Under the pieces are notes generated by a model, which ran no database searches, was not told where the DNA came from, and saw only the letters and a program-made list of their open reading frames with translations. A DNA stretch of 64,000 bases from an uncultured Gammaproteobacteria bacterium (GTDB taxonomy: Bacteria > Patescibacteriota > Microgenomatia > Levybacterales > UBA12049): positions 76,233 through 140,232 of the forward strand of contig CAZEJU010000002.1 of assembly GCA_964512695.1 (NCBI GenBank), read 5' to 3'. Position numbers and translations under genes: made by a program. Of the stretch, positions 976 to 56,274 are shown piece after piece (position 1 is the stretch's first letter; each line of letters opens with the position of its first letter).

Positions 976-3900
976 ATGGACGAAAAGAATAAGATACTGA
1001 CATTTGAAGATTACCTCGCGAAGTATCCCGAATTAATGGGAGTACGAACCCTTGAAGAGTTCGATGCACTGTTGGCAGATTTACCGGAAAAGATACCTCA
1101 TGATTTATGGGATATTATAGAACCAACAATCGTTGAAAGGGCTGACATCAGTATTGATCACCCTCAAACGAAAAAAAAGACACCTGAGAGAAAGAAAGCT
1201 CCGTCTCCGTATGCTAACAAAGCTGTTACACATATCTCTGGAACAGTAAAACCCAAATCACTTGAAGAAAATCCAGAATACATTCGCTTACGGAATGATA
1301 GAAAGAGAGAATGGTTTGAAAACCGACCAGGTATTGATGAAGACGCCTTCGTGGCTCGAGCTTATTTTAACAATCTAGAAACAGACTCTAACCATCCAGT
1401 TGATACTCTCTTCCCTTTTAAAAAAGTCCACTCAGATTTTGAGGAAGAGATCCGTAAAGAGTTTTTTCAGCTACATCCTCAGGCTGAAAAGGAACATAAA
1501 GAGTTTGAGAGAACTCACAGATATAATAATCCCATCGAAGACCCGACATATTTGGGTTTTATGCTAACAGCCAAAAAGAGAGCTCGAGAATGGTATGACA
1601 GACAGCTTTCTGAAGGGATTACGCCCTCCCCTACACAACTTGAACATCAGTTCAGTATAGAAAGAGCAAAAGCACTAGCTACCTTTCAGAACGAACATCC
1701 TCTAAAAGCAGATATCTATCAGGAACAATTTGGATCAGTTGAGAAAGCAGTTAGCCAGGCTCGAAAAGAAACGGAGGGGAAAACCTCATCAGAAACGGAA
1801 GCGCCCCAAGAATCAACTACCTACCTTATTATTGATGAAAGCGCACGAAAAGACATGCCGCTTGTTTCATTCTCTCTTCCTTCCACAAAGCTAAGAAAAG
1901 ATCAGGAATACATTCAATTTCGAGAAGCGTTACGCAATGAAAAAATCAGGGTTTGGGAAAGAGATCATCCGGACAAAAAACCGTCCGACAGAGTCTATGA
2001 TGCTAAATTTACCAGTTATTTTGATCGTAATCCAGAAACAGGAGATTTGCCGTTTTATGAAGATGCTGAAAGAATATTTCGTGGTATGCGGCCTGAAAAA
2101 GCTGCTGCTTATGACGCGTTAGAGAGAAGGAGGGTTTATAACGATCCTTTCTCAGACCCTGTTTTTGTTCAGTATCTTAAACAATCGTCAAAAGCAGCCG
2201 AGAATGCTGTAAGAGAGGCTCGCAAAGCGAATCCGAAAATCACGCGTCCTGAAGAAGAAAGAATTTACCTTGTTGAGAGATACCGTTACAGTCTTACTTT
2301 TCATGTTTTGTTTCCTGAGAAAGCTGCTGGTTATGCAAAAGTTCACAGCCCTTTTACAAGCGTAGGCAACTACCGAAAAACCGTTGGAGAGAAAACACGT
2401 CTTTTCTCTTCCTCTTCAACGCAACACAAGGCAACAGGTGAGTCCTATGATGACATTTTTAAATCTGTGACTGGTGGAGCTGTACCGAGTTCACATGCTG
2501 AAAAGCTTCCCTTTTCAAAGCCTCAAATTTCTCCTTCCGAAGAGACTGAGGAATGGGAAGAGGAAGAGGCAAGCGATAATCGTTTATATAATACGAGCGG
2601 TTCTACAAATTATAATGATGCTCGTAGCGAAAGGCCGGATAGAAGAAGAGAACCTCTCTCTAGAAGAGCAAGAGAGGCACAACGATCAATAAATAGAGCC
2701 CGCCAACGAATCCAAAACGCCAAGAAATTAGCTGAGAGAGGGCGAAAGGTCGCTCAGCTAGCACAACGCTTCGAAAAAGCGGCTCAGGTAGCCAGGGTTG
2801 CAGGTACTTTTATAGCAAGTCCTGAGTTCATCGTTGTCGTTATAATTATTTTAGTCATTTTACTGTTTTTCATTATTTTCAGTAGCATGATGAGTTCTAC
2901 CAACATCGAGCAGAGACGAGGCTATATAGATGATAGGACGCTAGCAAGAGTATCTATTCTGAAACAAGGACCAAGTATCGTAACTATACCAAGAAAATTA
3001 GTTCCACTACCAGACGATCCTTTTAACACAGAGCCTGACTGGGATAAGGTTTATGTAACCTATAGAATGAATGTTACGTATCCCGGAATCGCAGAAGATG
3101 TCATTATCGCTGAAGCTGTGCCTGAAGGAACTGAAATAATTACAAATGATGATCCTACTACACCTAGCATTGAAGAAACTACCGAACCGTTTAAGCGTCT
3201 TGATGAAAATGGAGAGGCTGTCAGAAATAACAGAGATACAAGAGTTATAGAGTGGTCGTTAAAAGACTTACAAGATCCGGTACGAGTAGCAACCCCAAAC
3301 CCTTCTCAGCCTGTTAGAAACGTTACAGCATATACCAACCCTCCCTATAATTTCCCCGCTCCTTCAGGCACATCGGACACTACGTATTCAGATGCCGAGC
3401 TTACCCGGTTAAATGAGCTGGGTGGAAGAGTTAGAAAGTATGATTCGTATCTACTCGGAATTGTTAACAGTAATAGCGAGTATACCGATCCTTTCCTTTC
3501 TGTAATTTGGGCAGGCGCGATTGCAAAAACAGGTGGTGATCCATATTACTGGAAATGCGGATCCCGAAGAGTAAACGATGGTTGTTCTTCTGGAGCCTTC
3601 TCGTCTGGAGAGTGGTTAACAGGGCATGCAATGCCCGTGAACAAAGCAACTGACAGTCTTTACAGTGTTTTTGCTGCAGTATATGGTGTTAGCGGCGCAG
3701 AGAATCCTGATCGGGTTAGAGAAATAGGTCAACGTGTTGTAGATTTTTCAGGTAGTTCTCCTCTCGGAGGTATTCAGAACCCTATTACCTTCCCCAGCAA
3801 ACGACTTGGATTACTTATAGATGAAGCAAAAGCTGGCAACTCAGAAGCTCAACAAGCGGTCGCGATATTACTTATGGATCCAGATATCGCAGCGCTTTCA

Positions 3901-4608
3901 CTTGCACGAATGATTGCGCTTGACATATCCCGAAATAATGACTGGGCATCAACGCTGCGTGGTTATGGATATTCTGATATACAAACATATGCAAATAGAT
4001 TGAACGCAATTATTCAAAAATACTCAGGAACTATTGTCGGAAAATTTGATTCTGAAGAAATTGTTGTTACATTTAAAATCCCTTCTGACATGTGGATAGC
4101 GAACACAGCAGTAGGAACTGTCATAGGCGCTCAAAGAACAGATGATCGGAGTCCCTCACAACTGCCTAATGATGAAAACTGCAATGGTTTTTATACGCTA
4201 AACAATAAAATTCATAAAAACTTCGGTGACCCTGGATGTGATTACAAAAGCGATAAAGATAAAGCAAAGCAAGAATTAATCGCGAGATTAGGAGCAGATA
4301 ATCCCGATGTTAATAAATGGGCTCTTGTCGTAATCCCTTGTGAAAGCGGCTATAATGCAAACGCATATGCTTCACATGAAAGTATAGGAACTCCTGATAA
4401 AGGTGGCGCTTGGGGTATGTTTCAAATGGGTAGCTGCATAGACGCTCCAGGATCCGGATGTGATGGAAAAAATGGTCCTTATGATAAGGGTGATGTAAAC
4501 TGGCAGCTGCAAATTCGAAACGCTGTAGAATATAATAGAATTTTAGAGAGAAATCGTCGAAAGTGGCAGTACTGGGCATGTGCTAAACGATATTGGGGAC
4601 AACCATGA
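976..4608 (+). CDS. Giant membrane-anchored protein (one TM near aa 615-640) with a C-terminal SLT-like lytic transglycosylase domain (VirB1-like)
   Basis: 1210-aa ORF. It has a hydrophobic segment 'FIVVVIIILVILLFFIIF'. The C-terminal 'CESGYNANAYAS...GAWGMFQMGS' resembles the SLT ES...GLMQ motif. It lies next to a VirB4-like ATPase. Confidence 0.5.
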   Translation: MDEKNKILTFEDYLAKYPELMGVRTLEEFDALLADLPEKIPHDLWDIIEPTIVERADISIDHPQTKKKTPERKKAPSPYANKAVTHISGTVKPKSLEENPEYIRLRNDRKREWFENRPGIDEDAFVARAYFNNLETDSNHPVDTLFPFKKVHSDFEEEIRKEFFQLHPQAEKEHKEFERTHRYNNPIEDPTYLGFMLTAKKRAREWYDRQLSEGITPSPTQLEHQFSIERAKALATFQNEHPLKADIYQEQFGSVEKAVSQARKETEGKTSSETEAPQESTTYLIIDESARKDMPLVSFSLPSTKLRKDQEYIQFREALRNEKIRVWERDHPDKKPSDRVYDAKFTSYFDRNPETGDLPFYEDAERIFRGMRPEKAAAYDALERRRVYNDPFSDPVFVQYLKQSSKAAENAVREARKANPKITRPEEERIYLVERYRYSLTFHVLFPEKAAGYAKVHSPFTSVGNYRKTVGEKTRLFSSSSTQHKATGESYDDIFKSVTGGAVPSSHAEKLPFSKPQISPSEETEEWEEEEASDNRLYNTSGSTNYNDARSERPDRRREPLSRRAREAQRSINRARQRIQNAKKLAERGRKVAQLAQRFEKAAQVARVAGTFIASPEFIVVVIIILVILLFFIIFSSMMSSTNIEQRRGYIDDRTLARVSILKQGPSIVTIPRKLVPLPDDPFNTEPDWDKVYVTYRMNVTYPGIAEDVIIAEAVPEGTEIITNDDPTTPSIEETTEPFKRLDENGEAVRNNRDTRVIEWSLKDLQDPVRVATPNPSQPVRNVTAYTNPPYNFPAPSGTSDTTYSDAELTRLNELGGRVRKYDSYLLGIVNSNSEYTDPFLSVIWAGAIAKTGGDPYYWKCGSRRVNDGCSSGAFSSGEWLTGHAMPVNKATDSLYSVFAAVYGVSGAENPDRVREIGQRVVDFSGSSPLGGIQNPITFPSKRLGLLIDEAKAGNSEAQQAVAILLMDPDIAALSLARMIALDISRNNDWASTLRGYGYSDIQTYANRLNAIIQKYSGTIVGKFDSEEIVVTFKIPSDMWIANTAVGTVIGAQRTDDRSPSQLPNDENCNGFYTLNNKIHKNFGDPGCDYKSDKDKAKQELIARLGADNPDVNKWALVVIPCESGYNANAYASHESIGTPDKGGAWGMFQMGSCIDAPGSGCDGKNGPYDKGDVNWQLQIRNAVEYNRILERNRRKWQYWACAKRYWGQP

Positions 4609-7974: not shown

Positions 7975-9327
7975 TTACACATATAACTGTTGAGTAATCC
8001 TCTCAATATCCTCATTTATTGCAGCCTTGTTTTCCACAAGATGCTCTATTTTCTCCACACCATGCATAATCGTTGTATGGTCTCTCCCTCCAAGCAGGTT
8101 GCCAATCTCAACAAGTGTAAGGGAAAGCTTCGTTTTTAGAAGGTACATGGTAATTTGTCGTGCTTTAACAAGTGAGGCTTCTCTTTTTGGGCCTCTTAAT
8201 TGGGTTGGTTTAATATTATAGTACGTACAAACATTTTTAATAACATCTTCTGCATGAAGATGTGGCTTAGTGTCTCCGACTTCTCTACCCAATGCCTGAG
8301 AGATTACGCTCACAGTAAGAGGAACGTTTTTCGTAGTAGCGATAGTTACTGTGCGTAATAAAAGCCCTTCTAACGTTCTTGCATCTGTTGCTTGTTCTGC
8401 GAGAAACTTTGCCACATCTATAGGTAGATCGATATTATACTTTCTGGCTTTAATGAGCAAAATCGCAGTTTTAAGTTCGAAATCAGGAGCTCCTATATCT
8501 ACTGTGAGGCCACCAGCAAATCGCGATGACAACCTTTTCTCCAGTTTCTTAATCTCTTCAGGTGGGCGGTCAGAAGAAAGAACAATTTGCGCTCCTTGAT
8601 CAATAAGTATATTAAAAGTATGGAATAGCTCTTCTTGTACCCGCTCTTTACCTTCTATAAATTGAATATCATCAATAAGCAGTAATATCGCTGATCTGAA
8701 GCGCTTCTTCATCTTTGCAGTTTCATTTGTACGGATTGCTTCAACCACCTCGTTTGTAAACTCTTCACTCGTTATGTAAATAATCTTTCTGTCTGGCTGT
8801 TTTTGATAAACATCATTTGCAATTGCGTGCATAAGGTGCGTTTTTCCTACTCCCACTGGACCATAAATAAAAAAAGGATTGTAGGAAGTCCCTGGATTTC
8901 CGGCTACAGTTGATGCAGACACAAAAGCTAATTGGTTACTGGAAGATACAGCGAAGTTCTGAAATGTAAAATCCGGCCGTACTCGTGGTAAGTGTCCAAT
9001 AACGAGTGAGGTAGGTTTTTGAACTGGTGCTTGAACAAAAAGAGGTGTATGTTCTTCTTCTATCTCTGTAGCCTGTATGGATTTAACAATAAAGAGAATG
9101 GAACTTTGTAAACCGGTTATGGTATCAATATGGGTTTTTATTCGCTCAGAAAACCTTCTTTGCAACATATCAACAATCATTGGGGAAGGTGCTGCGATGG
9201 TAGCTATCTCGTCGGCAAATGAAATAAGTGACGTTTGTTTAAATAATGTTAAAAAGTTAGCACGAGAAACTTCTTTTTCAATTTCTATTAAAACCTTTTG
9301 CCAAATGTTTTGTGGATCAGCCTCCAT
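7975..9327 (-). CDS. dnaA: Chromosomal replication initiator DnaA
   Basis: Walker A 'GPVGVGKTHLMHAIAN', AAA+ and C-terminal DNA-binding domain. The start is chosen at 'MEADPQNIWQKV' because the longer N-terminal ORF extension is not DnaA-like. Confidence 0.9.
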   Translation of the reverse strand: MEADPQNIWQKVLIEIEKEVSRANFLTLFKQTSLISFADEIATIAAPSPMIVDMLQRRFSERIKTHIDTITGLQSSILFIVKSIQATEIEEEHTPLFVQAPVQKPTSLVIGHLPRVRPDFTFQNFAVSSSNQLAFVSASTVAGNPGTSYNPFFIYGPVGVGKTHLMHAIANDVYQKQPDRKIIYITSEEFTNEVVEAIRTNETAKMKKRFRSAILLLIDDIQFIEGKERVQEELFHTFNILIDQGAQIVLSSDRPPEEIKKLEKRLSSRFAGGLTVDIGAPDFELKTAILLIKARKYNIDLPIDVAKFLAEQATDARTLEGLLLRTVTIATTKNVPLTVSVISQALGREVGDTKPHLHAEDVIKNVCTYYNIKPTQLRGPKREASLVKARQITMYLLKTKLSLTLVEIGNLLGGRDHTTIMHGVEKIEHLVENKAAINEDIERITQQLYV

Positions 9328-9369
9328 ATATAAACCTAGAGATAAAGTCGATACAAAGCAGTGTACTAA

Positions 9370-9378
9370 TGTGGATAA
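9370..9378 (-). promoter_or_regulatory. Consensus DnaA box upstream of dnaA (rpmH/dnaA divergent region)
   Basis: Exact TGTGGATAA. Confidence 0.5.
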
Positions 9379-9490
9379 CTTTTTGTCAAGAAGGAGTTTT
9401 TCTACGAAAGAATAGTCTACCATTTGATGTTTGAAGCTTAACTCGAGTAGGACTTGTGGTTCTCTCCCCTACTTTGCTATACTATACAGA

Positions 9491-13159: not shown

Positions 13160-15823
13160 ATGGTATGCTTACATACAGTTCTGCCTATGCAAACCGAGCC
13201 TTCTATAAATCCAGTTTTATTATACGACCCAAGCGGTCTATACGGAAATATTATTGCTGAGAATCTTCCATCATTAACAACAAGAGTTCTTGTAAGTCCA
13301 AAACCAAGTATTAAGAGCCCGAATCTTTTTTACATCCCACTTAAAAGAAATATACCGACATTACCTGCTTGTATTTACTCAAACCATTTTATTTTTTATG
13401 ATAAACAGAGTAATATACTTCCCCTCTTACCTTTTTTTCTGCAAAAAAAGAGACAGGATAATGCCAGAATTTACCTTTTTATTCCAATCAGAGAAATTTC
13501 AATTCAACTATTAGAAACAATAAGAAATCTTTCCTCAGAAGTCATAGTTGTTGGTATTGGTGATTTCTTTGGGACACTTTCCAATTGGGAGAATCCACTT
13601 ACTGAACTTATTGAACAGGCGAGTCATGGAACTTTGCACCTGACTTCCAGCGGACTTTCTAAACTCTATCCAGTATATGACCGGGATGCAATATCAGTCT
13701 TTACGGACTTAGCTTTTGGACGGTTATCCCTACAACCTCCTACGATTCACGTTATATCCCAACAGCCAGTCACAACTCTTTCTCTTGCAAGGCAGTTACA
13801 CAAGAAAGAGCCTCTTATTGCTATTCGCTTATCTTCCACACACTCTTCTATAAAAGATGCTGTAAATCTACCCTTCTCTTTTCTTTGTAAATCGTTTAAC
13901 TATGGAGAAAAGCTTCCTCATATTGTTCTCTCCATAGAATCATCGAAAAAACAGAAAAAAGAGAAAGCACAAGTAAACAAGCCTTATAACTATCTTTATG
14001 CGGTGATGGCTTCTGTGTGTGTGGGGTTCTTTATCACTCTTATTGTGCCTTTGGTAAGTGCATTAGTAGGAGCAGAATATCTTACACGCGCATATCATAA
14101 TGTTGAGAAAGGGGATTTCCAAAAAGCGTATACTTCTGCTTCTACTGCGAAAACACTCTTTTCTTTTGCTGGTAAGACAATGGCAAGTATAGAGATGTTT
14201 GAAAACTTGGGATTTCAAAAAGGACTAGTCATATTTAAAAAAAGTGTAGTCACAGGGAAAGAAGTTTCGGAATCTTTTTTGGTAGGAATTGATGGCATAC
14301 AGCTGTTACGAAACGTTTTTTCAAAGAAAAGCATTGAACCTCGTCAAGATTTTTTAACAGGATTGCGTTATGTCCGAGAATCCATGACTCAATTAACCTC
14401 ATTACAAGCTGAAGATAAAATTCCAGAAAAGTACAAAAGTAAGTTTGCTGCTTTACAAATAACACAAGACCTTTTTACCGGAACTTTTGATGTATTACCG
14501 GAGGTTCTGGGTATGCAAGAAAAGAAAACGTATTTATTATTATTTCAAAATAATATGGAGCTTCGTCCAGGCGGAGGGTTTGTAGGTTCTTATGGTATTT
14601 TAGAGCTTGATCAAGCTAAGATTACGAACTTTACAATACATGATGTATATGACGCAGATGGACAACTGAAAGAACATATAGAACCACCTTTTCAGCTTAA
14701 GAAATATATGGGAGCAAATCATTGGTTTTTACGAGATAGCAACTTTGATGTTGATTTCCCTAAGAGTGCAGCAGCAGCAGCGCTTTTCTTGAAGTTAGAA
14801 ACAGGAGAGGTTGTAGATGGGGTTATTGCAATAGATACGTTATTTATTAAAAATCTTCTTTCCGAGATAGGTCCACTATATATTCAAGAATACAAGGAAA
14901 CAGTAACAGCTGACAATTTCTTTTTATTAACACAAAAGTATGTTCAGGAAGAATTTTTCCCTGGATCTACTCAGAAGAAAGATTTTCTCCAGGCAGTATA
15001 TACTACCCTTTCACTAAAGCTATTGGATTCTGACAGAACCCCCTATATAGAAATTGCTGATGCAATCGTTAAAAGTGTTGCTCAGAAAAATATTCTTTTC
15101 GCATTTCCGGATAAAGATATCCAAAAGGTTTTTACCTGGAATAATTTATCATCAACTCTTATAGATACTCGAGAAAAAGAAGATGGATATATTTATGATT
15201 TTTTTGGAATTAATGAAGCGAATATAGGAGCGAATAAAGTAAACTATTATCTTGATAGGGCGATTAATCACAGTGTGGCATTAATGGAGTCAGGTGTCGC
15301 TTCAGAGAACGTGGTAATTGAATACTATAATAAAAGTACAGCAGCTGATGCGTTCGGGGGAGATTATAAAACGTATGTCCGCTTTATTCTTCCGTTAGCA
15401 GCAGATTTACAGGCTGTTACAATTGATGGCATACAACAGTCTCTTCTACCAGCCGTTACAGATGTATCATTAATTCCCGACGACCTCGTAATTCTCCCGA
15501 ACGAGGTAGAGGTAGAGAAGTCAGAGCAAGAAGGGAAAAAGATATATGGTTTTTATACTACCGTACCGATGGGAGCTAAGAAAACCATAAAGATTTCGTA
15601 TGACTTCCCTGTAAATATAGGACAGGCTAGCAATACGTATTCTCTTCAGGTTTTTAAACAACCGGGCACGAACGCAGATCCTTATGTTTTTTCTTTACAA
15701 ACTCCAGAGAACTATGACATTCGTTCGGATAACCCCCGAGTTAACATTCAGAATAAAAAAGCAACATATTTTTCAGATTTATCGGAAGACAGAGAGATAA
15801 ACGTAATGATAGTGAAGAAATGA
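13160..15823 (+). CDS. Large hypothetical protein with a DUF4012-like core and a central TM
   Basis: Motif 'LLFQNNMELRPGGGFVGSYGILEL' is recalled as the DUF4012 signature. TM 'YAVMASVCVGFFITLIVPLV'. Confidence 0.35.
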   Translation: MVCLHTVLPMQTEPSINPVLLYDPSGLYGNIIAENLPSLTTRVLVSPKPSIKSPNLFYIPLKRNIPTLPACIYSNHFIFYDKQSNILPLLPFFLQKKRQDNARIYLFIPIREISIQLLETIRNLSSEVIVVGIGDFFGTLSNWENPLTELIEQASHGTLHLTSSGLSKLYPVYDRDAISVFTDLAFGRLSLQPPTIHVISQQPVTTLSLARQLHKKEPLIAIRLSSTHSSIKDAVNLPFSFLCKSFNYGEKLPHIVLSIESSKKQKKEKAQVNKPYNYLYAVMASVCVGFFITLIVPLVSALVGAEYLTRAYHNVEKGDFQKAYTSASTAKTLFSFAGKTMASIEMFENLGFQKGLVIFKKSVVTGKEVSESFLVGIDGIQLLRNVFSKKSIEPRQDFLTGLRYVRESMTQLTSLQAEDKIPEKYKSKFAALQITQDLFTGTFDVLPEVLGMQEKKTYLLLFQNNMELRPGGGFVGSYGILELDQAKITNFTIHDVYDADGQLKEHIEPPFQLKKYMGANHWFLRDSNFDVDFPKSAAAAALFLKLETGEVVDGVIAIDTLFIKNLLSEIGPLYIQEYKETVTADNFFLLTQKYVQEEFFPGSTQKKDFLQAVYTTLSLKLLDSDRTPYIEIADAIVKSVAQKNILFAFPDKDIQKVFTWNNLSSTLIDTREKEDGYIYDFFGINEANIGANKVNYYLDRAINHSVALMESGVASENVVIEYYNKSTAADAFGGDYKTYVRFILPLAADLQAVTIDGIQQSLLPAVTDVSLIPDDLVILPNEVEVEKSEQEGKKIYGFYTTVPMGAKKTIKISYDFPVNIGQASNTYSLQVFKQPGTNADPYVFSLQTPENYDIRSDNPRVNIQNKKATYFSDLSEDREINVMIVKK

Positions 15824-15868
15824 AGCATAAGGGCTGGAACATATCTGCAGAAAACTTATTATGTATTA

Positions 15869-16723
15869 TTAATGGAATATAAGCTCAGAAACGATGTGGT
15901 AAACTTCATAGAATCCCCATCCGGCAATAAGAACGAAGGCTAGCCCTCCTATTATTAATACCCATGGATTTTGTACTGCCAGAACAGTTTTCTTAGGAGA
16001 GATAAAAAGCGCTACATTTAGTATCATATGCCCTAAGAATACTCCGATAGCAAAGCCATAAACATTAATAATGTCAAAAAGCGGAATATAGCCAGCGAAG
16101 TCATCAAGTCCGAGAATAAACGGAATAGATGATGAAAAGATGATGAGACTTTTCCAGGGTAAAGATTTCATATTTGTTAAACTCGCACTGGGTGAAATAA
16201 AGCGAATAAGAGGGGCAAGTGTTTTATTTGAGACATGGAGAACTTTTTTGATAGTTTGTAGTTGCTGTAGTAAAAAATGTGGTATTGCTTTTTCTTTATG
16301 TGTCAATTCCTCAAAGCTTTCCTCAGCCATTTTTAATAAAACAAGAGAAGCTAGAAAAATCATAATGGCCATAAGCAAAGGAACCTCTCTGAAAAAATTC
16401 CAAATAACGAGAATTACCAAAGTTCCGAGAGCATTTCCCCCAGCAGTGCCGAGTTCTATGGCAACTCTGTTTTTCCATCCCGGATTACTTCGCATGAGAT
16501 TGCCTATAAAGATAGCGAAGTCCACAGATGTTTTTAGGTAAATAGTTAACCCAACGAGAATATCTCTTTTCCGAATCTCAAGAACTATTTTTTCTCGGGA
16601 AGGTAAAAGATTTAATCCCACTATAGTAAGATAGAGAAGGGCACAAAACCCGAAAAATGTTATAACTGTCAACACTATGGGTAATACTTGTTCGCGGAAA
16701 AAGCGGCTACTCGTGTTAGTCAT
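15869..16723 (-). CDS. Polytopic membrane protein, unknown family
   Basis: Multiple hydrophobic helices. Confidence 0.4.
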   Translation of the reverse strand: MTNTSSRFFREQVLPIVLTVITFFGFCALLYLTIVGLNLLPSREKIVLEIRKRDILVGLTIYLKTSVDFAIFIGNLMRSNPGWKNRVAIELGTAGGNALGTLVILVIWNFFREVPLLMAIMIFLASLVLLKMAEESFEELTHKEKAIPHFLLQQLQTIKKVLHVSNKTLAPLIRFISPSASLTNMKSLPWKSLIIFSSSIPFILGLDDFAGYIPLFDIINVYGFAIGVFLGHMILNVALFISPKKTVLAVQNPWVLIIGGLAFVLIAGWGFYEVYHIVSELIFH

Positions 16724-17420
16724 TCAAGTGGTCCTTCTTTAGAGTTTTCTGAATATCTTTATAGGTTGCTTGTTCTAATTGCTTTTTAGACATTTTTGGA
16801 GCTCTCTTATGATTTATATATTCTATAATCATTGGAAGTATAGATACCAACACGATTAATATAACTGCATATTCGAAGTTGTTCTTTACTATTGGTAAGC
16901 CTCCAAGGAAGAACCCGAGAACAGTAAGACTTGTTACCCAAATAAATGCTCCAGTAACATTATAGAAGAGAAACGTATTATAGTGCATTTTTCCTACTCC
17001 TGCGACGAACGGAGCAAATGTTCGAACAATTGGTACGAAGCGAGCAAGAATTATCGTCTTTCCCCCATGTTTCTCATAAAACTCACGGGTTTTCTCTAAA
17101 TATTCCTTTTTAAAAACCCGAGAGTTTTCTTTCGCAAAAACCCGTGGACCGATATGATGTCCGACCCAGTAATTAACAGTATCACCGAGAATTGCTGCCA
17201 GCATAAGCGTAATATAAACCATCCAAAAATTCAGTAATCCGCTTCCTGCGAGTGTCCCTGCGACGAATAAGAGGGAGTCTCCAGGTAAAAAAGGAGTAAC
17301 GACGAAACCTGTTTCAGCAAACACTATTAAAAATAAAATAAGGTAAGTAAGCGGACCGAACATCGCAATTATATTTTTCAAATGTTCATCAAAATGCAAG
17401 ATAAGGTCGAATAGATCCAT
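16716..17420 (-). CDS. DedA/VTT-family membrane protein
   Basis: 'PFLPGDSLLFVAG' and 'ARFVPIVRTFAPFVAG' are typical DedA motifs. Confidence 0.65.
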   Translation of the reverse strand: MDLFDLILHFDEHLKNIIAMFGPLTYLILFLIVFAETGFVVTPFLPGDSLLFVAGTLAGSGLLNFWMVYITLMLAAILGDTVNYWVGHHIGPRVFAKENSRVFKKEYLEKTREFYEKHGGKTIILARFVPIVRTFAPFVAGVGKMHYNTFLFYNVTGAFIWVTSLTVLGFFLGGLPIVKNNFEYAVILIVLVSILPMIIEYINHKRAPKMSKKQLEQATYKDIQKTLKKDHLND

Positions 17421-18201: not shown

Positions 18202-19170
18202 TTAAGCCCTTGGTAACATGCGAGCAGCTTGTTGTACTTCTGTTGCATCAGGAAGAATACCGCCTATATGAATATGGGTCGCTTTATATACCGCATTCAT
18301 TGTCGACGCATCAATCCCCCCTTCTAGTTGTGCTTCAGCTGCCAAAATGCGAAGTTTATCAACATCCCACGGTGTTGGCTCAGTAAGTACTCTTTCTCGT
18401 TCGCTCGGTGGTAGATCTATCCTTCGGAAAGCATCAGGTCCTAGGTGATATCCAATCATCATTTTAACTTCGTCCGCAGGAATTTTTCTTCCAGCAACAC
18501 CTCGAATTACTTGTGGATATAAGACTTCTACCTGTGCGTCTCCATAATACCGTTCATAAATGAAAGTAGCAAACTGTTCTGGTGGTTCTGGTGATTCCGT
18601 AATTCGTACGCCTGTCGTATCGTCTTCATAGCGAGGAGGCATATGATCTATATACCATAGTCTTCTTCCGCTATCCTTTGCAAAATTCCCTAATGCAGGA
18701 TCAAGCGAAACTCTTCTACCAGGTCGTCCGTTTTCTCTAACTCGGCGGAACATTTCTAAATAACCTCGAAGATCATCTTTAACGACATCATCAGGATAAC
18801 TTGGATCAGAAAAAAGTTTTCGCAAATCTACCCCTGCAGGCTTAACGGCTTCAGAAAGCATTACTTTTCCTTCGTGTCCGTTTGGTTGAATAATGTGGCC
18901 AATAGTCGGTGCAACTGGGACGCCAAGTTCTGTAGCAATTCTGTCAAATGTGCGCATATGCAATGCTAGCTCATATGCTTGTCGCTGGGATAGCCCATCT
19001 TCTGCCTTTCTGCCAGCGCTCTTGATAAAAACCTGTTCGCTACTTCCGTTTTTTCCTATCTGGCCACGCAGTAGATCTGTGTGAAATCCGGTGTTATCTG
19101 TAACAACACTTAGGCCAGTGAAAGCAGCATGCATATTAATAATTTGTTCAGCATCCATTAGTTTTGCCAT
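18202..19170 (-). CDS. Hypothetical protein, 322 aa, with locally higher GC
   Basis: Long intact ORF with no recognisable motif. Confidence 0.4.
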   Translation of the reverse strand: MAKLMDAEQIINMHAAFTGLSVVTDNTGFHTDLLRGQIGKNGSSEQVFIKSAGRKAEDGLSQRQAYELALHMRTFDRIATELGVPVAPTIGHIIQPNGHEGKVMLSEAVKPAGVDLRKLFSDPSYPDDVVKDDLRGYLEMFRRVRENGRPGRRVSLDPALGNFAKDSGRRLWYIDHMPPRYEDDTTGVRITESPEPPEQFATFIYERYYGDAQVEVLYPQVIRGVAGRKIPADEVKMMIGYHLGPDAFRRIDLPPSERERVLTEPTPWDVDKLRILAAEAQLEGGIDASTMNAVYKATHIHIGGILPDATEVQQAARMLPRA

Positions 19171-19421: not shown

Positions 19422-21038
19422 ATGATTGATTTAATTTTATCTTTAGAATGGCAGGCATTGCAGAAACATTATGAAGAAATAAAAAATTCTCATTTGCGAG
19501 AGGTATTTTCTCAGGATGAAAAACGAGGAGAAACGTTTATCCTACAAGTAGGAGATTGGTATCTGGATTACTCAAAAAATAGAGTTACGAATAAAACGCT
19601 GCAATTGTTACTTCAACTAGCTAACTCAGTTAATCTTAGGCAAGCCATAGATGCTATGTTTTCTGGACAAGCTATTAATACTACTGAAAATCGTCCGGTT
19701 TTACATGTCGCACTTCGAAATCGTTCAAATACTTCCATTATTGTTAATGGTACTGATGTGATGCCAGAGGTAAATAGAGTGCTTGAACAAATGCGAACAT
19801 TTGCACTTAAAGTTCGTTCAGGTGAGTGGAAAGGATATACGGAAAAGAGAATTAAAAATATAGTAAATATCGGTATCGGTGGATCTGACTTAGGACCAGT
19901 AATGGCTTATGAAGCCTTAAAAGCATATAGTGATCGGTCGTTAACTATCAGATTTATTTCTAATATAGACGCAACACATTTTTATGAATCTACCCGGGAT
20001 TTAGCTCCCGAAGAAACTCTCTTTATTATCGCTTCTAAAACATTTACGACAGAAGAAACCATGACAAATGCAGAAACTGCGAGGAAATGGCTTGTAGATG
20101 CACTAGGCAGTCAAGAAGCAGTATCTAGACACTTTATCGCCTTATCTACAAATATGGAGAAAGTAAAGGCTTTTGGGATAGATCCAGAAAACATGTTTGT
20201 TTTTTGGGATTGGGTGGGTGGCAGATATTCTCTCTGTAGCGCGATCGGTTTACCAGTAATGATTGCGATTGGTCCGGAGAATTTTGACAAGATGCTTGAC
20301 GGGTTTCATTCGATGGATCATCATTTCAGAACTGCTTCTTTTGAAAAAAACATGCCAGTTATTCTTGGATTGCTTGGAATATGGTATAACAACTTCTTTG
20401 GAGCGGAAACATATGCGCTGTTACCCTATGATCAGTATCTGCACCGATTCCCGGCTTACTTTCAGCAAGGAGATATGGAGAGTAACGGTAAATCAGTACG
20501 AAAAGACGGGAAGCGAGTGGAATGTCAGACAGGTCCAGTTATCTGGGGAGAACCAGGAACAAACGGTCAGCACGCTTTTTACCAGTTAGTCCATCAAGGT
20601 ACGAAACTTATTCCAGCAGATTTCATTGGGTTTAAAGAACCATCACACCAAATTGGAGATCATCATCAGAAGCTCATGGCGAATTTTCTCGCACAGACAG
20701 AAGCATTAGCTTTTGGGAAAACTGCAGATGAACTTAGGGCAGAAGGTGTAGGGGAAAGTCTTATCTCTCATAAAACATTTGAAGGAAATAGGCCAACGAA
20801 TACGTTGTTAGCTACTAAGCTTACCCCTCACACGTTAGGACAGTTAATAGCATTATATGAACATAAAATTTTCGTTCAGGGAGTTATCTGGGGAATTAAT
20901 TCTTTTGATCAGTGGGGAGTGGAGTTGGGGAAAGTATTAGCAAAAAAAATATTACCAGAGTTAAAAGATGAGAAAACAGAGCTGCACCATGATTCTTCTA
21001 CAAACAACCTCATTAAAAAATGTCGAGAGCTTCAATAA
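19422..21038 (+). CDS. pgi: Glucose-6-phosphate isomerase
   Basis: '[18 protein letters not shown]' and '[14 protein letters not shown]' are PGI signatures. Confidence 0.9.
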
Positions 21039-21089
21039 GATATTAATTTTATTAACTGAAAACTGTTGGAATCTTTTTCAGTATATGTC

Positions 21090-21590
21090 ATAGAGTGGTG
21101 GGGCCACGCCTGTTTAAGGAATGGCCCCATTAGCCGACGGTTTTTAGCCGTCGAGAGTGAGTGTAAAAAGCCTGTGGTCAAATCCGGCTTCTGTGCAGAA
21201 TGACTCTGCATGCCTCTTGACCACCTCGTCCAGCCGGGTGTCTCTGCTCAGCGCAGCTCTGAAGTTACGTGGAATACCCACCAGCGGTGGGCCGGTATGC
21301 TTCCACAGGGTAACCCCTGCAAATTCTACCGTCCAGAGTACTTCGACCAGAAGCCACCCCTCGAGGTCCTGGCCATCGGGCCATTTTGTGGCGCCTCGGC
21401 GGAATTCGACGGGATGACCCAGTCGCTGCTGTGCGTCTCGCTGGATGCTCTGCAGCAACTTCTGCTGGGCCTGTTTGTACAGGCGGTTGTCAACTGTCAT
21501 GACAGACATTCTTAATCTCCTCTGTAAAAGTTCAGCCGCGCGAATGCGGCATGGAGTCACCGGCCCTCGTGCCGGTAACAGAAAAATAGT
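21090..21590. other. GC-rich (about 58-60%) foreign-looking segment with paired hairpins at one end
   Basis: There is an abrupt compositional shift relative to the flanks. Hairpins are GGGGCCA...TGGCCCC (21099-21127) and CGACGG...CCGTCG (21129-21150). Confidence 0.5.
21144..21509 (-). CDS. Hypothetical protein inside the GC-rich segment, with CTG/CGC-rich codon usage
   Basis: ORF beginning 'MSVMTVDNRLYKQAQQKLLQ...' (track ORF 21144-21560). It is followed on its strand by the hairpins. Confidence 0.35.
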   Translation of the reverse strand: MSVMTVDNRLYKQAQQKLLQSIQRDAQQRLGHPVEFRRGATKWPDGQDLEGWLLVEVLWTVEFAGVTLWKHTGPPLVGIPRNFRAALSRDTRLDEVVKRHAESFCTEAGFDHRLFTLTLDG

Positions 21591-21690
21591 ATAGCAAAGA
21601 TAGCCTATAGTGGCAAGTTCTGGCTGTAAATATTGTGGTGATGAATTGGTATTTGATACACAAGTATCATGGTGAAATAGTGGGTTATTT

Positions 21691-23082
21691 TTAGTGTGGC
21701 TGTACTGTATTCTGCAGATACATAGCTTTTAAGTAGGCTATGTGGTTGTTTGTCAGAGATGTTAAGATTGTTCCGCCTGCTGTGAACGCGTGAGTTACGT
21801 CATCTAGTGATCCATATTTTTCGAGTGCGACCCGTCCTTCTCCGCCTCCTACATAGGTTTTAATACCTGCTAGTGTCATCTGTTTTAGTAATGGTATAAA
21901 TTCTTTTGTACCATTCTCGAACAGAGGATCTTCAAATTTTCCAAATACACCATTGTGGAACATGACATATGGTGTTTGAGCGGTCTTGCTTTCTTCTATA
22001 TAGGAACGAATTTTTTCTGCAAAAAGTTTTCGTGTTTCAGGGCCGATATCTAGTTGCGTTCGACCTTCAGGGATAGTTTTACTAGCCTCGCCATTTTCTA
22101 ATATAAAATCGACAGGGAATACGACATCAATATTATTATCTTGGCATATTTGCATAATTTCTTTAGCTTGGTCAAATCGTTTCGGCTCTACATACGCTTC
22201 ACTAGCAGGATCATTCTCAGCAGCCCCTGCAGAAAACTCCACTCCTTCAAGTTCGCTCTTCGCTTTTAGTAACGGCATAGCTAACGCCCCAGCAGTAAAG
22301 ATCAGTTTAAGATTTCCTCTTTCGACCATACCTTCTAAGTCATCCAATTTATCCATTTTTATACCACTCATAACGACGAAGTTTGCGTTTCTAACATTCC
22401 GGATATGTGTCTGCATCTCGTCAGCTATGTAAAATCCGAGAGCTGTTTTTTTCATCAGTAGGGGAATTGCGACTGAAGAAAAATCCACGTTTGATGCTGC
22501 GATAGCCTCGTTAATCTCAACTTGAGTTAGCCGGTCACTTATATCTTTACTCACAGTGTACATTTTTTCACTGATGGCTGGGAATGTTTCTTCTGTCGCT
22601 TTCCACAGCGCTCGTTCCATATCATATTTTCTGGTATTCTCTAAAAGGAAAATACTTTTTGGCTCAGCTGATTTTACTTTCTCTACTACATCATCGGTCA
22701 GTTTATTTTTAGCTTCATCAAGCCATTCAGGAATAAATGTTACAGGAAGGCTAGTATAATCGCTAATTGCTTTAACTATTGGAAGTGCTGTGTTCGTTTT
22801 ATCTCGTCCTACATGGCCGAAAAGAATTGTTTTCCAACCTTTATCGTAGGTGAATTTTATTGTTTGGGCAATGGATTCTATTCGGCTCATATCTTTCACA
22901 GCCCCGTCTTTTACAGGAACATCGATATCAACCCTTATTAACACAGGCGTTCCACTTGGCAATTCAGATAACGAATCAACACGCGGAATAGCGTCGAGTA
23001 ATGTCTCTAAAGGAAGATTGTTTATCTCGGCATCTTGGGCAAAAATTTTGTGGAGAAGGGTATTAAATGATTGAAAATCCAT
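21691..23082 (-). CDS. pgk: Phosphoglycerate kinase (long form)
   Basis: 'VLIRVDIDVPV', 'YVGGGEG' and 'FTAGGTILTSL' are PGK motifs. Confidence 0.8.
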   Translation of the reverse strand: MDFQSFNTLLHKIFAQDAEINNLPLETLLDAIPRVDSLSELPSGTPVLIRVDIDVPVKDGAVKDMSRIESIAQTIKFTYDKGWKTILFGHVGRDKTNTALPIVKAISDYTSLPVTFIPEWLDEAKNKLTDDVVEKVKSAEPKSIFLLENTRKYDMERALWKATEETFPAISEKMYTVSKDISDRLTQVEINEAIAASNVDFSSVAIPLLMKKTALGFYIADEMQTHIRNVRNANFVVMSGIKMDKLDDLEGMVERGNLKLIFTAGALAMPLLKAKSELEGVEFSAGAAENDPASEAYVEPKRFDQAKEIMQICQDNNIDVVFPVDFILENGEASKTIPEGRTQLDIGPETRKLFAEKIRSYIEESKTAQTPYVMFHNGVFGKFEDPLFENGTKEFIPLLKQMTLAGIKTYVGGGEGRVALEKYGSLDDVTHAFTAGGTILTSLTNNHIAYLKAMYLQNTVQPH

Positions 23083-23084
23083 AC

Positions 23085-24449
23085 TTACTCTGTAACGTAT
23101 TGCTTAACAGTATCCATAGTTCCCTCAATTTTCAGTTCGTCATAGATCTTTCCTATATACTCTTCAAGCGCATGAATAATAGGTTTCTTTTCTGCTTCTG
23201 ATAAGTGCCAAAGCTGTTTTTTAAATGGTCCCCATGTCTTTTTTCGTACTTTATAGAGAAATTGATTTTCAGTCCATCCAGTGGCCCATTCATCCTTTAA
23301 TTCTTTCTTCGCCCACTCATACATTTCATCTCTTAAAGCTGCAGGCATTGTGTCGAATACGATGTTCTGAAAACCTGTAGATAGATGAATTTCTGCTGTG
23401 TGCGATTTTACGAAGGTATTAAATACATCCATAGGAAGAGTAGAAGCCCCATGCTGTACTGGCCCTGCCAAATGATATTTTTCTTTCGCAACTTTTCCTA
23501 TTGATTCAAGAACTGAAAAATCAACTGGCATTTTTTGTACTTCCCCTGTAGAGCTGATAACTCCACCATGGCTAGTTCCTGTTTGAACGCTTACCTTACT
23601 TATACCGCTTCCACGAGGAATTTTATTAAGATACTGATGCATAAAAGCTTCAAAATCTTCAACAGTACTATTCTTCTCTCCGATATGCCCGATCTCTCCA
23701 CCTATAACGATAGGAGACGAAGCAGCGTACGGATGGTTATCTCGTTGTAATTGTGTTTCTTTTTCACGAATGAACTTCGTCATCTCAGCAGTTACATACG
23801 CATTCTCATGTTGTTGTGCTGTTAATGAAGGCTTACTTAAATCGACAAGTGTAGATCCATCAATATCGATGTTCCTAAAGCCAGCTTCTAATAAAATCGT
23901 AACCCAGTCTCTTAGTCGCTGTAATTCTTGTTCTTTGTCGGATGAAAATCTTTTTAAGCTAAATTGACAATGATCTCCTTGGATAAAAACAGGACCTTTG
24001 TAATTTTCCCGTAATGCAGCGCCTAAAATAACTGCTGCAAATTCATCTGGATGCTGATCTGTATACTCACTTTCTGTTTTCGCAATTTCAATAATTAATG
24101 CTCCAGCCTTTTTCTTTTGTGCTACCCGAAACATTGCGCGGGCAGTATCATACGCCATCATGCGGATATTCATTGCGGGAACAGTAAAACCAGACACTTT
24201 CTGTTCTCCTAAAGCCTGATAAAGCGGGCGAATAGATGCGGAAGAGGCATCGAGATTTTTCGATAATCCATGAATAATACGGCGAGCTTTCGCTTTTAAA
24301 GAATCATCTGAACCGAAAACTGAAGTATAGACTAGTTTATCAATCATCTCGTGTGTAATTTTATCCGGGTGAGTTATATCGAAGGAGTCGTCATGAAGAG
24401 CAATAGCATGATGAAGTTCTATTTTTAAGTCGTTTAGATTTTTAAACAT
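23085..24449 (-). CDS. Class II fructose/ketose-bisphosphate aldolase family protein
   Basis: 'VPAMNIRMM...FIQGDHCQF' is the class II aldolase zinc-site pattern. The start is trimmed to 'MFKNLNDL'. Confidence 0.65.
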   Translation of the reverse strand: MFKNLNDLKIELHHAIALHDDSFDITHPDKITHEMIDKLVYTSVFGSDDSLKAKARRIIHGLSKNLDASSASIRPLYQALGEQKVSGFTVPAMNIRMMAYDTARAMFRVAQKKKAGALIIEIAKTESEYTDQHPDEFAAVILGAALRENYKGPVFIQGDHCQFSLKRFSSDKEQELQRLRDWVTILLEAGFRNIDIDGSTLVDLSKPSLTAQQHENAYVTAEMTKFIREKETQLQRDNHPYAASSPIVIGGEIGHIGEKNSTVEDFEAFMHQYLNKIPRGSGISKVSVQTGTSHGGVISSTGEVQKMPVDFSVLESIGKVAKEKYHLAGPVQHGASTLPMDVFNTFVKSHTAEIHLSTGFQNIVFDTMPAALRDEMYEWAKKELKDEWATGWTENQFLYKVRKKTWGPFKKQLWHLSEAEKKPIIHALEEYIGKIYDELKIEGTMDTVKQYVTE

Positions 24450-24531
24450 ACCGTCACATATTCTATAAGAATATAGCCTTCTACGCAAGTCATATTTTGA
24501 GATAGAGAGAAAATACGATACAATATCTACC

Positions 24532-25851
24532 ATGATTCCATCAATTATTGAAGCAGAATATCCTTTACGTTTCCGTGAAGAGGACGCGATGCGCCTTGGT
24601 GAATTTCTCCGCCAGCATGAAAGTGTAGATATTATTGGCATGAAGCGTGTCGGTATTAGTAATTTTTTACGGTTTTTCCTAAACCATAGAAATATCGTTC
24701 CTACATATATTAGTAAAGAAGAGAGACATGTATTTATCGCTGTTGACCTAAATGATCTTATCGAACGAGAGATTTTTCCTTTCTGGACATTAACGTTAAA
24801 AAGAATTGTGGACAGTGTCTCTAAAATAGATATGCCTTCTGGCAAAAAAGAAGATATTGAACAGCTATTTCTCAAGACGATTCAAGCCCAAGATCATTTT
24901 CTTACAATTGATAGCGTTCGCAATGTCTTATTAAAGATCATTAATGCGGGTTATTTTCCAACACTTTTCTTTCTTAGGTTTGATCGTATGAGTGAGGTTG
25001 CGACCCCATCTTTTTTTGATAACTTGCAAGGGCTAAAAGATGCAACACATCAAAAGTTATCGTACGTCTTTACTAGCTATAGAAGTCTAGACGAGCTTTC
25101 TCCATCAGTATTTACACCAGCTTCACTTTCTCTTTTTTGCAAAAATATGTACATGAGTCTTGCTCATAGATCAGATATGGAAACTATCTATGAGACATAT
25201 GCATCGCGTTATGGATTAGAACTTCCTGTAGAGTTACAACACTCTGTCCTTAATTTAGTCAGTGGTTATGTTCAATATCTCCAGTTAAGCCTTATTATTC
25301 TTCATGAGAATAAAGATAAATTGCCTCAGAATATGCAAGAATTATTCTCTCTATTAGTTCAGGATGAAAGGATCACTCTTCAATCCGAGGAGTTGTGGGA
25401 TAGTTTACATGAAAAGGAGAGAATTATTCTTCATAAAGTAGCTGTGGGGTTAACTATTGAAGAGGCAGATAGGAAAGAAGCATCTTATCTTTGGGAAACA
25501 GGTTTTCTTATGGAAAAGCAAGAAAAGAATTATGTTTTTAGTCCTTTATTTCAAGAATACCTTGGTCAACAAGTGCAAGTAATGTATCCACAGCAGAATA
25601 GCATTCATTTTAGTCGTAAGGAGCATGCTCTTTTTACTGTTTTAGAAGCAAAGAAGGATCAAATATGCGAACGGGAAGAAATTATAGAAGCGGTATGGCC
25701 GGAATCAAAAGACTTCGGTATTTCTGACTGGGCTATAGATAGACTTATCGCCCGTGTTCGAACAAAATTACGACAGCAAAATAGCCCTTATGAAATACGC
25801 ACAATTAGGACGCGGGGATATCAACTAGTAGACAAACAGGTTTCCTCGTAG
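24532..25851 (+). CDS. Regulator with an N-terminal NTPase-like domain and a C-terminal OmpR/PhoB-type winged helix
   Basis: C-terminal 'ICEREEIIEAVWPE...WAIDRLIARVRTKL...IRTIRTRGYQL' matches Trans_reg_C. It is divergent from the aldolase gene. Confidence 0.55.
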   Translation: MIPSIIEAEYPLRFREEDAMRLGEFLRQHESVDIIGMKRVGISNFLRFFLNHRNIVPTYISKEERHVFIAVDLNDLIEREIFPFWTLTLKRIVDSVSKIDMPSGKKEDIEQLFLKTIQAQDHFLTIDSVRNVLLKIINAGYFPTLFFLRFDRMSEVATPSFFDNLQGLKDATHQKLSYVFTSYRSLDELSPSVFTPASLSLFCKNMYMSLAHRSDMETIYETYASRYGLELPVELQHSVLNLVSGYVQYLQLSLIILHENKDKLPQNMQELFSLLVQDERITLQSEELWDSLHEKERIILHKVAVGLTIEEADRKEASYLWETGFLMEKQEKNYVFSPLFQEYLGQQVQVMYPQQNSIHFSRKEHALFTVLEAKKDQICEREEIIEAVWPESKDFGISDWAIDRLIARVRTKLRQQNSPYEIRTIRTRGYQLVDKQVSS

Positions 25852-52363: not shown

Positions 52364-53014
52364 ATGAAAATGAAAAAAGATATAACATCACTGAAGCTCA
52401 CAAGACCACAGAAGATTCTCGTAACACTGTATCAACTTTCCGACGGTACTAATAAACAGGTCAGGTTCGAAGATATAGCAGTAGGCGTTTATAAGAACTT
52501 CACTTCCGATTTTCAGCTAAGAGGTTATCCTCAATACCCTGATACGGGTGATATTGTACATAAACCGCTGTATAGCGAATTGAAAAAAGGCGGATATGTA
52601 TTATCCGGCAATAAGTACTTTTCCCTTACTCCGAAAGGAATTGCGTACGCCAAAAGACTGCTCCGCGTTTCAGAGAAAGAAACCGAACCGGGTAAAACCG
52701 CTTCAGTGAAACTTACGGCAGACCAGCAGAAAGAGCTTGACAGATTGAAATCTTCAAAGGCTGTTGAGTTGTTTCTTAACGGCAAGAAAGAGGATATTCT
52801 TGATATAGACTTCTATTCCTATCTGGAAGTTACAGTGAGGACGGGTAAGAATGACTTTCTGGGAAGACTTCGCACGGTAGAAGACGCCATTAATGCTACA
52901 AAAAACAGAAGTGACACGCTGTACAAAAAGCTGAGAGAATGTCACGAGTATCTTCTTGAAAGATTCAGAGGAAACATTGATTTCGTAAGGAACAGCAAAG
53001 GAGGTAAGAGGTAA
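52364..53014 (+). CDS. Putative winged-helix DNA-binding protein, 216 aa
   Basis: 'RPQKILVTLYQLSDGTNKQVRFEDIAV...GGYVLSGNKYFSLTPKGIAYAKRL' is PadR/MarR-like. Its stop overlaps the next start. Confidence 0.4.
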   Translation: MKMKKDITSLKLTRPQKILVTLYQLSDGTNKQVRFEDIAVGVYKNFTSDFQLRGYPQYPDTGDIVHKPLYSELKKGGYVLSGNKYFSLTPKGIAYAKRLLRVSEKETEPGKTASVKLTADQQKELDRLKSSKAVELFLNGKKEDILDIDFYSYLEVTVRTGKNDFLGRLRTVEDAINATKNRSDTLYKKLRECHEYLLERFRGNIDFVRNSKGGKR

Positions 53015-56266: not shown

Positions 56267-56274
56267 TGATATAT

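Follow-up and report, generated by a model that had tools for sequence, protein, structure and literature searches.

The stretch of DNA analysed here (64,000 nucleotides, corresponding to positions 76,233 to 140,232 of contig CAZEJU010000002.1 in GenBank assembly GCA_964512695.1; hereafter, the window) comes from an uncultivated bacterium with a GC content of about 38%. Between the convergent genes pgk and pgi, the window contains a short GC-rich island that carries a single gene with its own promoter and hairpins, referred to below as the unit. On the chromosome, it is surrounded by fba, pgk, pgi, leuS and dnaA. Over the whole window, the GC content of 200-nt segments has a mean of 38.6% and a standard deviation (SD) of 4.5%; between approximately positions 21100 and 21500 it reaches 57-61%, i.e., about 5 SD over that mean. 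Both edges are sharp (GC fractions of 0.325 at 20900-21099 and 0.395 at 21600-21799), with a drop to 33-40% within 100-200 nt. A preliminary description of the locus had already pointed out a GC-rich segment of approximately 0.5 kb with abrupt edges, and these values bear it out.

The unit has been found in two other assemblies. The Logan assembly of run SRR8893623 includes a 2713-bp contig that is 100% identical to positions 19461-22173 of the window and spans both junctions. A second contig, of 2.1 kb, belongs to a different organism and sample (locus L002, run SRR13612670). It encodes the phosphoglycerate kinase (PGK) closest to that of the window in the protein database (P0006; 83% identical as protein, 76% as DNA) and, directly downstream of pgk and on the same strand, it shows a GC-enriched segment (~50% vs. 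38%) with an open reading frame (ORF) of 120 amino acids (aa). Thus, the L002 locus lends independent comparative support to the native status of the unit, which is shown to be real and native.

The components of the unit are collected in Table 1. Homology between the window and L002 starts exactly at the -35 element, and the spacer that follows the pgk stop codon is not alignable. The promoter is kept in L002 (TTGTGA-17-TGcTATACT), and transcription is predicted to start at about position 21581, next to the first stem-loop of the 5' untranslated region (UTR). In L002 this stem-loop reads GUUGCCAGC-ACGAGG-GCUGGUGAC: one base pair has undergone a compensatory change from G:C to A:U, another one has changed from A:U to G:U, and the loop is identical. 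In all, promoter and 5' UTR are ~80-84% identical between both loci, and the 5' UTR has a structure conservation index (SCI) of 0.92 (z-score of -6.2 vs. column shuffles, RNAalifold). The 3' end gives, with the same procedure, an SCI of 0.85 and a z-score of -11; its stem-loop appears in L002 as GGGGCCACUUC-CCAAAAA-GGAGUGGCCCC, and the tail behind it has the consensus RCCACUCU (A/G-CCACUCU). On this comparison, the regulatory ends of the unit are under purifying selection. A covariance-model search for further copies of the 5' UTR motif found none; for the collection of further members, the strings GCACGAGGGCYGGTGAC, GCCGCATTCGCGCGGC and GTGGCCCCRCCACTCT can be used.

Table 1. Features of the unit and of the two genes that flank it (positions in the window)
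Feature	Positions	Strand	Basis or remark
pgi, glucose-6-phosphate isomerase	19422-21038	+	NCBIfam PRK00179, 862 bits
AT-rich perfect 8-bp inverted repeat ACTGAAAA/TTTTCAGT	21055-21082	.	In the 54-nt spacer from the pgi stop codon to the conserved 3' tail of the unit
Whole unit, ~525 bp	21092-21616	-	Conserved block, from -35 element to 3' tail
Conserved 3' tail ACCACUCU (GCCACUCU in L002)	21092-21099	-	L002 alignment; N-CCA directly after the stem, no U-run; the conserved block ends here
Conserved 3' stem-loop, 29 nt, GGGGCCA...UGGCCCC, ~11 bp, 7-nt loop	21100-21128	-	Kept in L002
Hairpin CGACGG-CUAAAAA-CCGUCG, TAA stop codon in loop	21135-21153	-	Not conserved in L002
Coding sequence (CDS) for the 121-aa orphan protein, with its stop codon	21144-21509	-	ATG at 21509
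Shine-Dalgarno sequence GGAG, 7 nt before ATG	21517-21520	-	L002: GGAG 6 nt before ATG
5' UTR stem-loop 2, GCCGC-AUUCGC-GCGGC	21535-21550	-	Identical in L002
5'-terminal stem-loop 1, GUUACCGGC-ACGAGG-GCCGGUGAC, 9-bp stem, 6-nt loop with Shine-Dalgarno-like GAGG	21556-21579	-	1-2 nt after the predicted transcription start
Sigma-70-type promoter: -35 TTGCCA (21616-21611), 17-nt spacer, extended -10 TGcTATACT (hexamer 21593-21588)	21588-21616	-	Consensus score 10/12, with TG
pgk, phosphoglycerate kinase, long form	21691-23082	-	Pfam PGK

The two hairpins named in the preliminary description (CGACGG/CCGTCG and GGGGCCA/TGGCCCC) are both present and, as stated there, neither of them is followed by a U-run. 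They possess, then, the GC-rich stem-loop of a canonical intrinsic terminator and lack its second component. This genome shows hardly any enrichment in terminators of the canonical type: 19 vs. 13.2 +/- 3.0 expected in one count and 8 vs. 6.2 +/- 2.7 in another. The AT-rich inverted repeat beyond the 3' tail may be a putative terminator for either pgi or the transcript of the unit. Its membership in the unit is uncertain, and the L002 contig ends short of the matching region, so that the comparison does not cover it.

The ORF itself (minus strand, 21144-21560) amounts to 138 aa if it is read from a GTG and to 121 aa if it is read from the ATG, in agreement with the range of 121-138 aa previously given; the 121-aa start is favoured because its ribosome-binding site (RBS) is conserved in L002. 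Regarding the Proteobacteria-like CTG/CGC codon usage that had been attributed to it, the first half holds (CTG accounts for 8 of the 15 leucine codons, vs. ~10% in host genes), whereas the second is weak (CGC, 2 of the 11 arginine codons). Both ORFs, of 121 and 120 aa, begin at the conserved RBS and finish shortly before the conserved 3' hairpin: the L002 stop codon lies 6 nt before it, and that of the window ~15 nt before it, in the loop of the window-specific hairpin. The GC fractions at the three codon positions are 0.66/0.42/0.65 in the window and 0.55/0.36/0.61 in L002, the second position being the lowest in both. At its own composition, the probability of finding no stop codon over the ORF is 0.010 for the window (121 codons) and 0.0036 for the L002 orthologue. 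The two proteins are collinear, 28-29% identical (pairwise BLASTP E value of 0.002), and share the presence of four tryptophan residues and a near-neutral isoelectric point. The long antisense ORFs of the window have no counterpart in L002. Judging from these comparisons, the reading frame is maintained, and the analysis concludes that the ORF would be translated into a fast-evolving orphan protein. For this protein, an alpha/beta architecture is predicted (helix, approximately five strands, helix, strand), with neither signal peptide nor transmembrane segment. The AlphaFold2 (AF2) model of the L002 protein shows the same order (helix, five strands, helix, strand), with a predicted local distance difference test score (pLDDT) of 73.5 and a predicted template modelling score (pTM) of 0.66.

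The preliminary description was unable to assign the protein to any family, and much wider searches lead to the same outcome. Protein searches covered 5.8 billion clusters (word-indexed) and 1.84 billion representatives of ~15 billion proteins (exhaustive phmmer). The word-indexed search, carried out with the single sequence and then with a two-sequence profile, retrieved only the window and L002 proteins. The exhaustive one retrieved only the window's own protein plus P0003 and P0004, two long repeat proteins whose scores are sums over 4-9 repeats and which were judged spurious. Pfam, NCBIfam, PHROGs and PADLOC yielded noise at best (DUF1315, E 0.07; TetR_C_9, E 0.1; phrog_33647, E 0.024), and there was nothing credible in the PDB by sequence profile, in the PDB and BFVD by Foldseek, or in plasmids and phages by tblastn. 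Two weak tblastn matches were rejected as chance: (i) one in a Pseudomonas luteola plasmid (E 0.2), which corresponds to a hydrophobic stretch and has no equivalent for the L002 protein; and (ii) one of the window protein in L003, a more distant relative described below, which coincides with the L003 orthologue of a neighbouring 186-aa gene of the window. Motif scans of viral, genome and metagenome collections for further members gave chance matches in GC-rich genomes only, the hairpin context having been checked by eye. As for a role in defence or as a toxin-antitoxin system, no PADLOC match was obtained, the unit consists of one gene, tandem repeats are absent, and neither an antisense ORF nor an antisense promoter is conserved.

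The position of the unit in time can be estimated from its relatives. In the more distant relatives L003 (GCA_041906785.1) and L004, which have the same fba-pgk-pgi synteny and a PGK 65% identical to that of the window, the site is empty: the pgk and pgi stop codons are 3 bp apart (TAG-tcg-TTA) and there is no GC island. The idea of a segment inserted between pgi and pgk is, in consequence, upheld, and the check for presence in relatives that accompanied it has a clear answer, i.e., the unit is found downstream of pgk in L002 and is absent from L003/L004. In other PGK relatives (L005, L048, L049 and the P0014 contig), pgi does not adjoin pgk and these loci are uninformative for the insertion; a search for loci related by PGK among genome contigs found none. 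Look-ups by exact sequence for the PGK and PGI of the window, and for P0001, returned no entry. Four-fold degenerate sites of pgk are 36.9% identical between the window and L002, when 28.8% would be expected at random from composition, and hence synonymous sites in this gene are close to saturation. The simplest history consistent with these alignments would be a single insertion after the split from L003/L004 and before the split between the window and L002 lineages, followed by vertical descent.

Such a history is at odds with the recent horizontal transfer from a Proteobacteria-like donor that was initially suggested, since the unit predates a split at which the four-fold sites of pgk are near-saturated and no donor homologue appeared in the protein searches or in the motif scans of genome, metagenome and viral contig collections. 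Of the traits by which a recently acquired islet is recognized, the unit shows an atypical composition (GC 0.57 and GC3, the GC fraction at third codon positions, 0.65, vs. 0.38 and 0.27-0.32 in the host). It does not show an acquisition after the divergence of close relatives, as it occupies the same site in L002 and is missing only in the more distant L003/L004. In the same 5.8 billion clusters and 1.84 billion representatives, plus plasmids and phages, there is no homologue that could stand for a donor.

The composition of the gene deserves attention for another reason. Its GC3 in the window (0.65) and in L002 (0.61) differs from that of host genes with binomial p values of 2.5e-15 and 1.4e-12, respectively. 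Foreign GC is expected to decay by amelioration. In this case it should have decayed, because, in the same span of time, the synonymous sites around it have become almost random, with a shift towards AT; the fact that GC3 is high in both lineages therefore requires either selection or separate later replacements. The unit thus represents a clean case in which recent transfer cannot be deduced from a "foreign-looking" GC content: a GC3 of twice the host value has lasted across a near-randomising divergence.

Predicted RNA folding is unusual as well. When compared with dinucleotide shuffles, the sense strand has fold z-scores of -6.5 (window) and -5.9 (L002), and the antisense strand of -4.6 and -4.0. 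When the CDS alone is compared with synonymous-codon shuffles, which keep both the protein and the codon composition, the z-scores are -3.3 (window) and -4.3 (L002); the same synonymous test applied to 32 CDS segments of the host, as a control, results in a mean of +0.49 (SD 1.05) and a minimum of -2.1. A conserved long-range or interior RNA structure is unsupported (SCI of 0.15 for the CDS), bearing in mind that, with 29% identity, the CDS alignment is of too low a quality to discard an interior fold common to both. What is kept between lineages, then, is "much structure" rather than one specific fold. The untranslated hairpins are far better conserved than the protein, which points to selection on the transcript. 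From these patterns, it is inferred that both the transcript and the protein are targets of selection.

The explanation that we favour, with moderate confidence and on the strength of these comparisons, is that of an old single-gene insertion which has become a native, lineage-restricted orphan gene, and whose GC-rich, hairpin-capped messenger RNA (mRNA) would be kept by selection, probably for stability. According to this explanation, a single-gene unit would have entered between the convergent pgk and pgi in the ancestor of the window bacterium and one known relative, and it would have been vertically inherited since. Its own near-consensus extended -10 promoter would give rise to an mRNA composed of a stem-loop at the very 5' end, a second stem-loop, the RBS, the 121-aa ORF, the GC-rich 3' stem-loop and the sequence RCCACUCU. 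The most likely purpose of this arrangement would be a long-lived mRNA, which is proposed because of the 5'-end stem-loop, the Shine-Dalgarno-like GAGG in its loop, the GC-rich and largely paired body, and the 3' stem-loop. In such an mRNA, (i) RNase E or RNase J would be kept by the 5'-terminal hairpin from degrading the mRNA in a 5'-end-dependent manner; (ii) the GC-rich paired body would leave few AU-rich single-stranded cleavage sites; and (iii) 3' exonucleases would be halted at the 3' hairpin, or else this hairpin would set the position of the 3' end. Stabilisation of mRNA by a 5'-terminal stem-loop was reportedly shown by Emory, Bouvet and Belasco in 1992, and the same effect, for a Shine-Dalgarno-like sequence in the 5' UTR, by Agaisse and Lereclus in 1996. 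PMC3997798 has both works in its reference list. If the longevity of the mRNA, or a transfer RNA (tRNA)-like 3' end such as that discussed below, were true, the unit would constitute a compact natural module for stable expression, made up of promoter, 5' cap-hairpin and 3' hairpin, in a lineage about which little is known. Its importance is, for now, limited, as only two members are known.

Several points weigh against this explanation. The role in stability is inferred, and the transcript is predicted from the sequence. Replacements of the coding part that took place separately and more recently, with unseen GC-rich sources, could likewise account for the lasting GC3. In the interior, the two members do not pair at the same positions, as the SCI of the CDS indicates, and strong folding could be a by-product of composition history or of palindromes at the DNA level, which is conceivable because the antisense strands also reach z-scores of -4 or lower. 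Conservation and covariation rest on one pairwise comparison between the two members. Furthermore, the AF2 model of the window protein is poor (pLDDT of 48), and run SRR8893623 may also underlie the deposited assembly, so the Logan match taken alone is not fully independent.

Among the alternatives, the one that survives best, even if it is unlikely, is a recent or recurrent horizontal acquisition, in which the coding part would have been brought in or swapped at conserved flanks, separately in each lineage and from GC-richer donors, the high GC3 being then un-ameliorated foreign DNA. It would account for a GC3 of 0.61-0.65 against a background of 0.30, for a CDS merely 29% identical between flanks that are ~80% identical, for the difference in GC content between both copies (57% in the window, 51% in L002) and for the empty site in L003. 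Nevertheless, the two ORFs remain homologous and collinear, with equal lengths, neither protein has a homologue beyond the pair in the databases searched, and no DNA match appears in plasmids, phages or E. coli. Motif scans of GTDB representative genomes, JGI metagenomes and IMG/VR produced chance matches in GC-rich genomes alone, and the borders have no integrase, transposase or repeat. Foreign origin does not account, either, for the excess of folding over synonymous shuffles.

That excess, together with the strongly negative fold z-scores of both orthologues (stronger on the sense strand), could be expected if the functional product were a structured RNA of ~490 nt, with the ORF being incidental or dual-function and the GC richness being a structural constraint, as occurs with non-coding RNAs in AT-rich genomes. 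A GC island within an AT-rich genome, the conserved terminal structures, and a 3' stem followed by RCCA, which resembles a tRNA acceptor end, are also in line with this possibility. We consider it improbable for the following reasons: the ORF and its RBS have been maintained in both loci despite near-random nucleotide divergence; GC content follows a codon-position periodicity; and both the sequence and the pairing of the interior are unconserved, unlike those of known large structured RNAs. Rfam 15 offers no match at E <=1 over positions 20500-22200 and only noise at E <=10 for sub-regions and L002. A slightly more doubtful proposal, equally built on sequence features, combines both roles in a dual-purpose transcript of a new kind: a GC-rich and hyper-structured RNA of ~490 nt, maintained by selection, that would encode the orphan protein and also act as RNA, with a 3' minihelix similar to a tRNA acceptor (stem plus RCCA) that might be processed by RNase P or the CCA-adding enzyme or else mimic a tRNA end.

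There is very little room for a small non-autonomous mobile element of the MITE (miniature inverted-repeat transposable element), PATE (palindrome-associated transposable element) or IS200/IS605 (insertion sequence) type, with hairpin ends and a preference for this intergenic site. Hairpins near both ends, the convergent-gene setting and the empty site in a relative invite the comparison, but the unit is single-copy in the 64 kb (<=3 mismatches; covariance model), no other copy exists in any collection scanned, and terminal inverted or direct repeats are lacking. No HUH/Y1 transposase signature, TnpB, or Pfam/NCBIfam match was detected, nor any H-x-H motif common to both proteins, and the conserved "left end" is actually the promoter and 5' UTR. 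Finally, an assembly chimera or contaminant, which the abrupt change of composition at both edges had led to suspect, is practically eliminated by a second assembly identical across both junctions and by a homologous unit in the same place in another organism and sample, just as an engineered insertion or vector sequence is ruled out by the lack of DNA similarity to E. coli genomes, plasmids and phages, and the suspicious anomaly of composition is in this manner cleared.

Some other features of the window and its relatives can be mentioned. After the island, the highest GC peak in the window lies at positions 651-900 (up to 56%, with its maximum at 701-900). It is unrelated to the island and corresponds to the Pro/Gln/Thr/Ala-rich low-complexity C-terminal tail of a 304-aa protein (ORF 39-953, plus strand). 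Next to pgi, a 322-aa ORF (18202-19170, minus strand; GC 0.44, GC1 0.62, GC3 0.27) has no Pfam or NCBIfam match, and L003 has an unannotated 381-aa ORF at the equivalent position; the 322-aa ORF may be another lineage-specific gene. Also in L003, the pgi-side neighbours and a VTT-domain gene are separated by an AbiEii/DUF6922 pair and an HTH_32 gene (positions 15204-17153). No such genes exist there in the window and, hence, gene content around pgi is variable in this lineage.

On the other side, the ORF of the class II fructose-bisphosphate aldolase (23085-24875, minus strand; 596 aa from a TTG start) is probably over-extended; the L003 orthologue has 459 aa, and the 596-aa form overlaps a divergent 439-aa Trans_reg_C gene (24532-25851, plus strand) by ~340 bp. 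The window PGK is of the long form (~460 aa), and its closest named relatives (45-62% identity) belong to many different phyla (Blastocatellia, Aminicenantes, Zixibacteria, WOR-3 and others), so that PGK gives no taxonomic signal. The presence of dnaA in the window (7975-9423, minus strand) suggests that the region may be near the replication origin; upstream of it there is a 1210-aa ORF (976-4608, plus strand) without any Pfam domain. The proteins encoded at 53014-54858 and 56266-58680 have relatives at least 90% identical (P0130 and P0132) on a contig of 41.8 kb that occurs in JGI, ENA and Logan data. There is, therefore, the genome of a closer relative in public metagenomes, which might carry the pgk-pgi locus.

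With regard to known systems, the closest parallel in anatomy is provided by morons, described by Hendrix and colleagues as autonomous promoter-ORF-terminator units located between a pair of genes that lie side by side in related phages. Similarly, the unit is a single ORF with its own promoter, a terminal hairpin and a composition unlike that of its neighbours, placed between genes that abut in a relative. Unlike morons, it lies among core genes with no prophage (there is no PHROG match and no phage DNA or protein match), it is old and common to two deeply diverged lineages, and its 3' hairpin has no U-run. The term "moron" put forward in the preliminary description can, in consequence, be retained in part: an ancient moron-like single-gene insertion is the best description of the origin of the unit, whereas the recent arrival implied by it is not.

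The 5' end invites comparison with 5' stabilisers, such as the ompA and papA 5' UTRs in E. coli and the stabilising Shine-Dalgarno sequences (STAB-SD) in Bacillus. In common with them, the unit has a stem-loop at ~2 nt or less from the predicted 5' end, GAGG in the loop and a compensatory change; on the other hand, there is no sequence relationship, and both the transcription start and the stabilisation are, in the unit, predicted only. Regarding the 3' end, the processing of mascRNA from MALAT1 is an example of a tRNA-like end, in which a mimic of the acceptor and T-arm is followed by NCCA (PMC8457004). The unit has an 11-bp stem that starts with GGGG, a 7-nt loop and then A-CCA (window) or G-CCA (L002), in keeping with the stem of ~12 bp, 7-nt loop and discriminator base plus CCA of a tRNA-like minihelix. 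The stem has, however, 11 bp instead of 12 bp, and the loops UUAAACA (window) and CCAAAAA (L002) lack the T-loop consensus U54-U55-C56-R57-A58. ARAGORN and the Rfam tRNA models found nothing at the 3' stem-loop.

Dual-function RNAs (RNAIII/hld, SgrS/SgrT, SR1/SR1P) carry peptides of 26-43 aa within a small RNA that has defined base-pairing targets. The predicted transcript of the unit would be, like them, both translated and unusually structured; unlike them, its ORF fills the transcript and there is no known target. Lastly, orphan genes share with the unit a short, fast-evolving protein with no detectable homologue outside a narrow lineage. In AT-rich genomes they normally have the composition of the host, whereas the unit keeps a GC3 at twice the host value, an exceptionally stable fold, and untranslated ends far better conserved than the protein. 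All in all, the most suitable label for the unit is that of a lineage-restricted orphan gene whose structured untranslated ends are conserved and whose anatomy is moron-like, in which the maintained GC content and the excess of folding are a modest curiosity.

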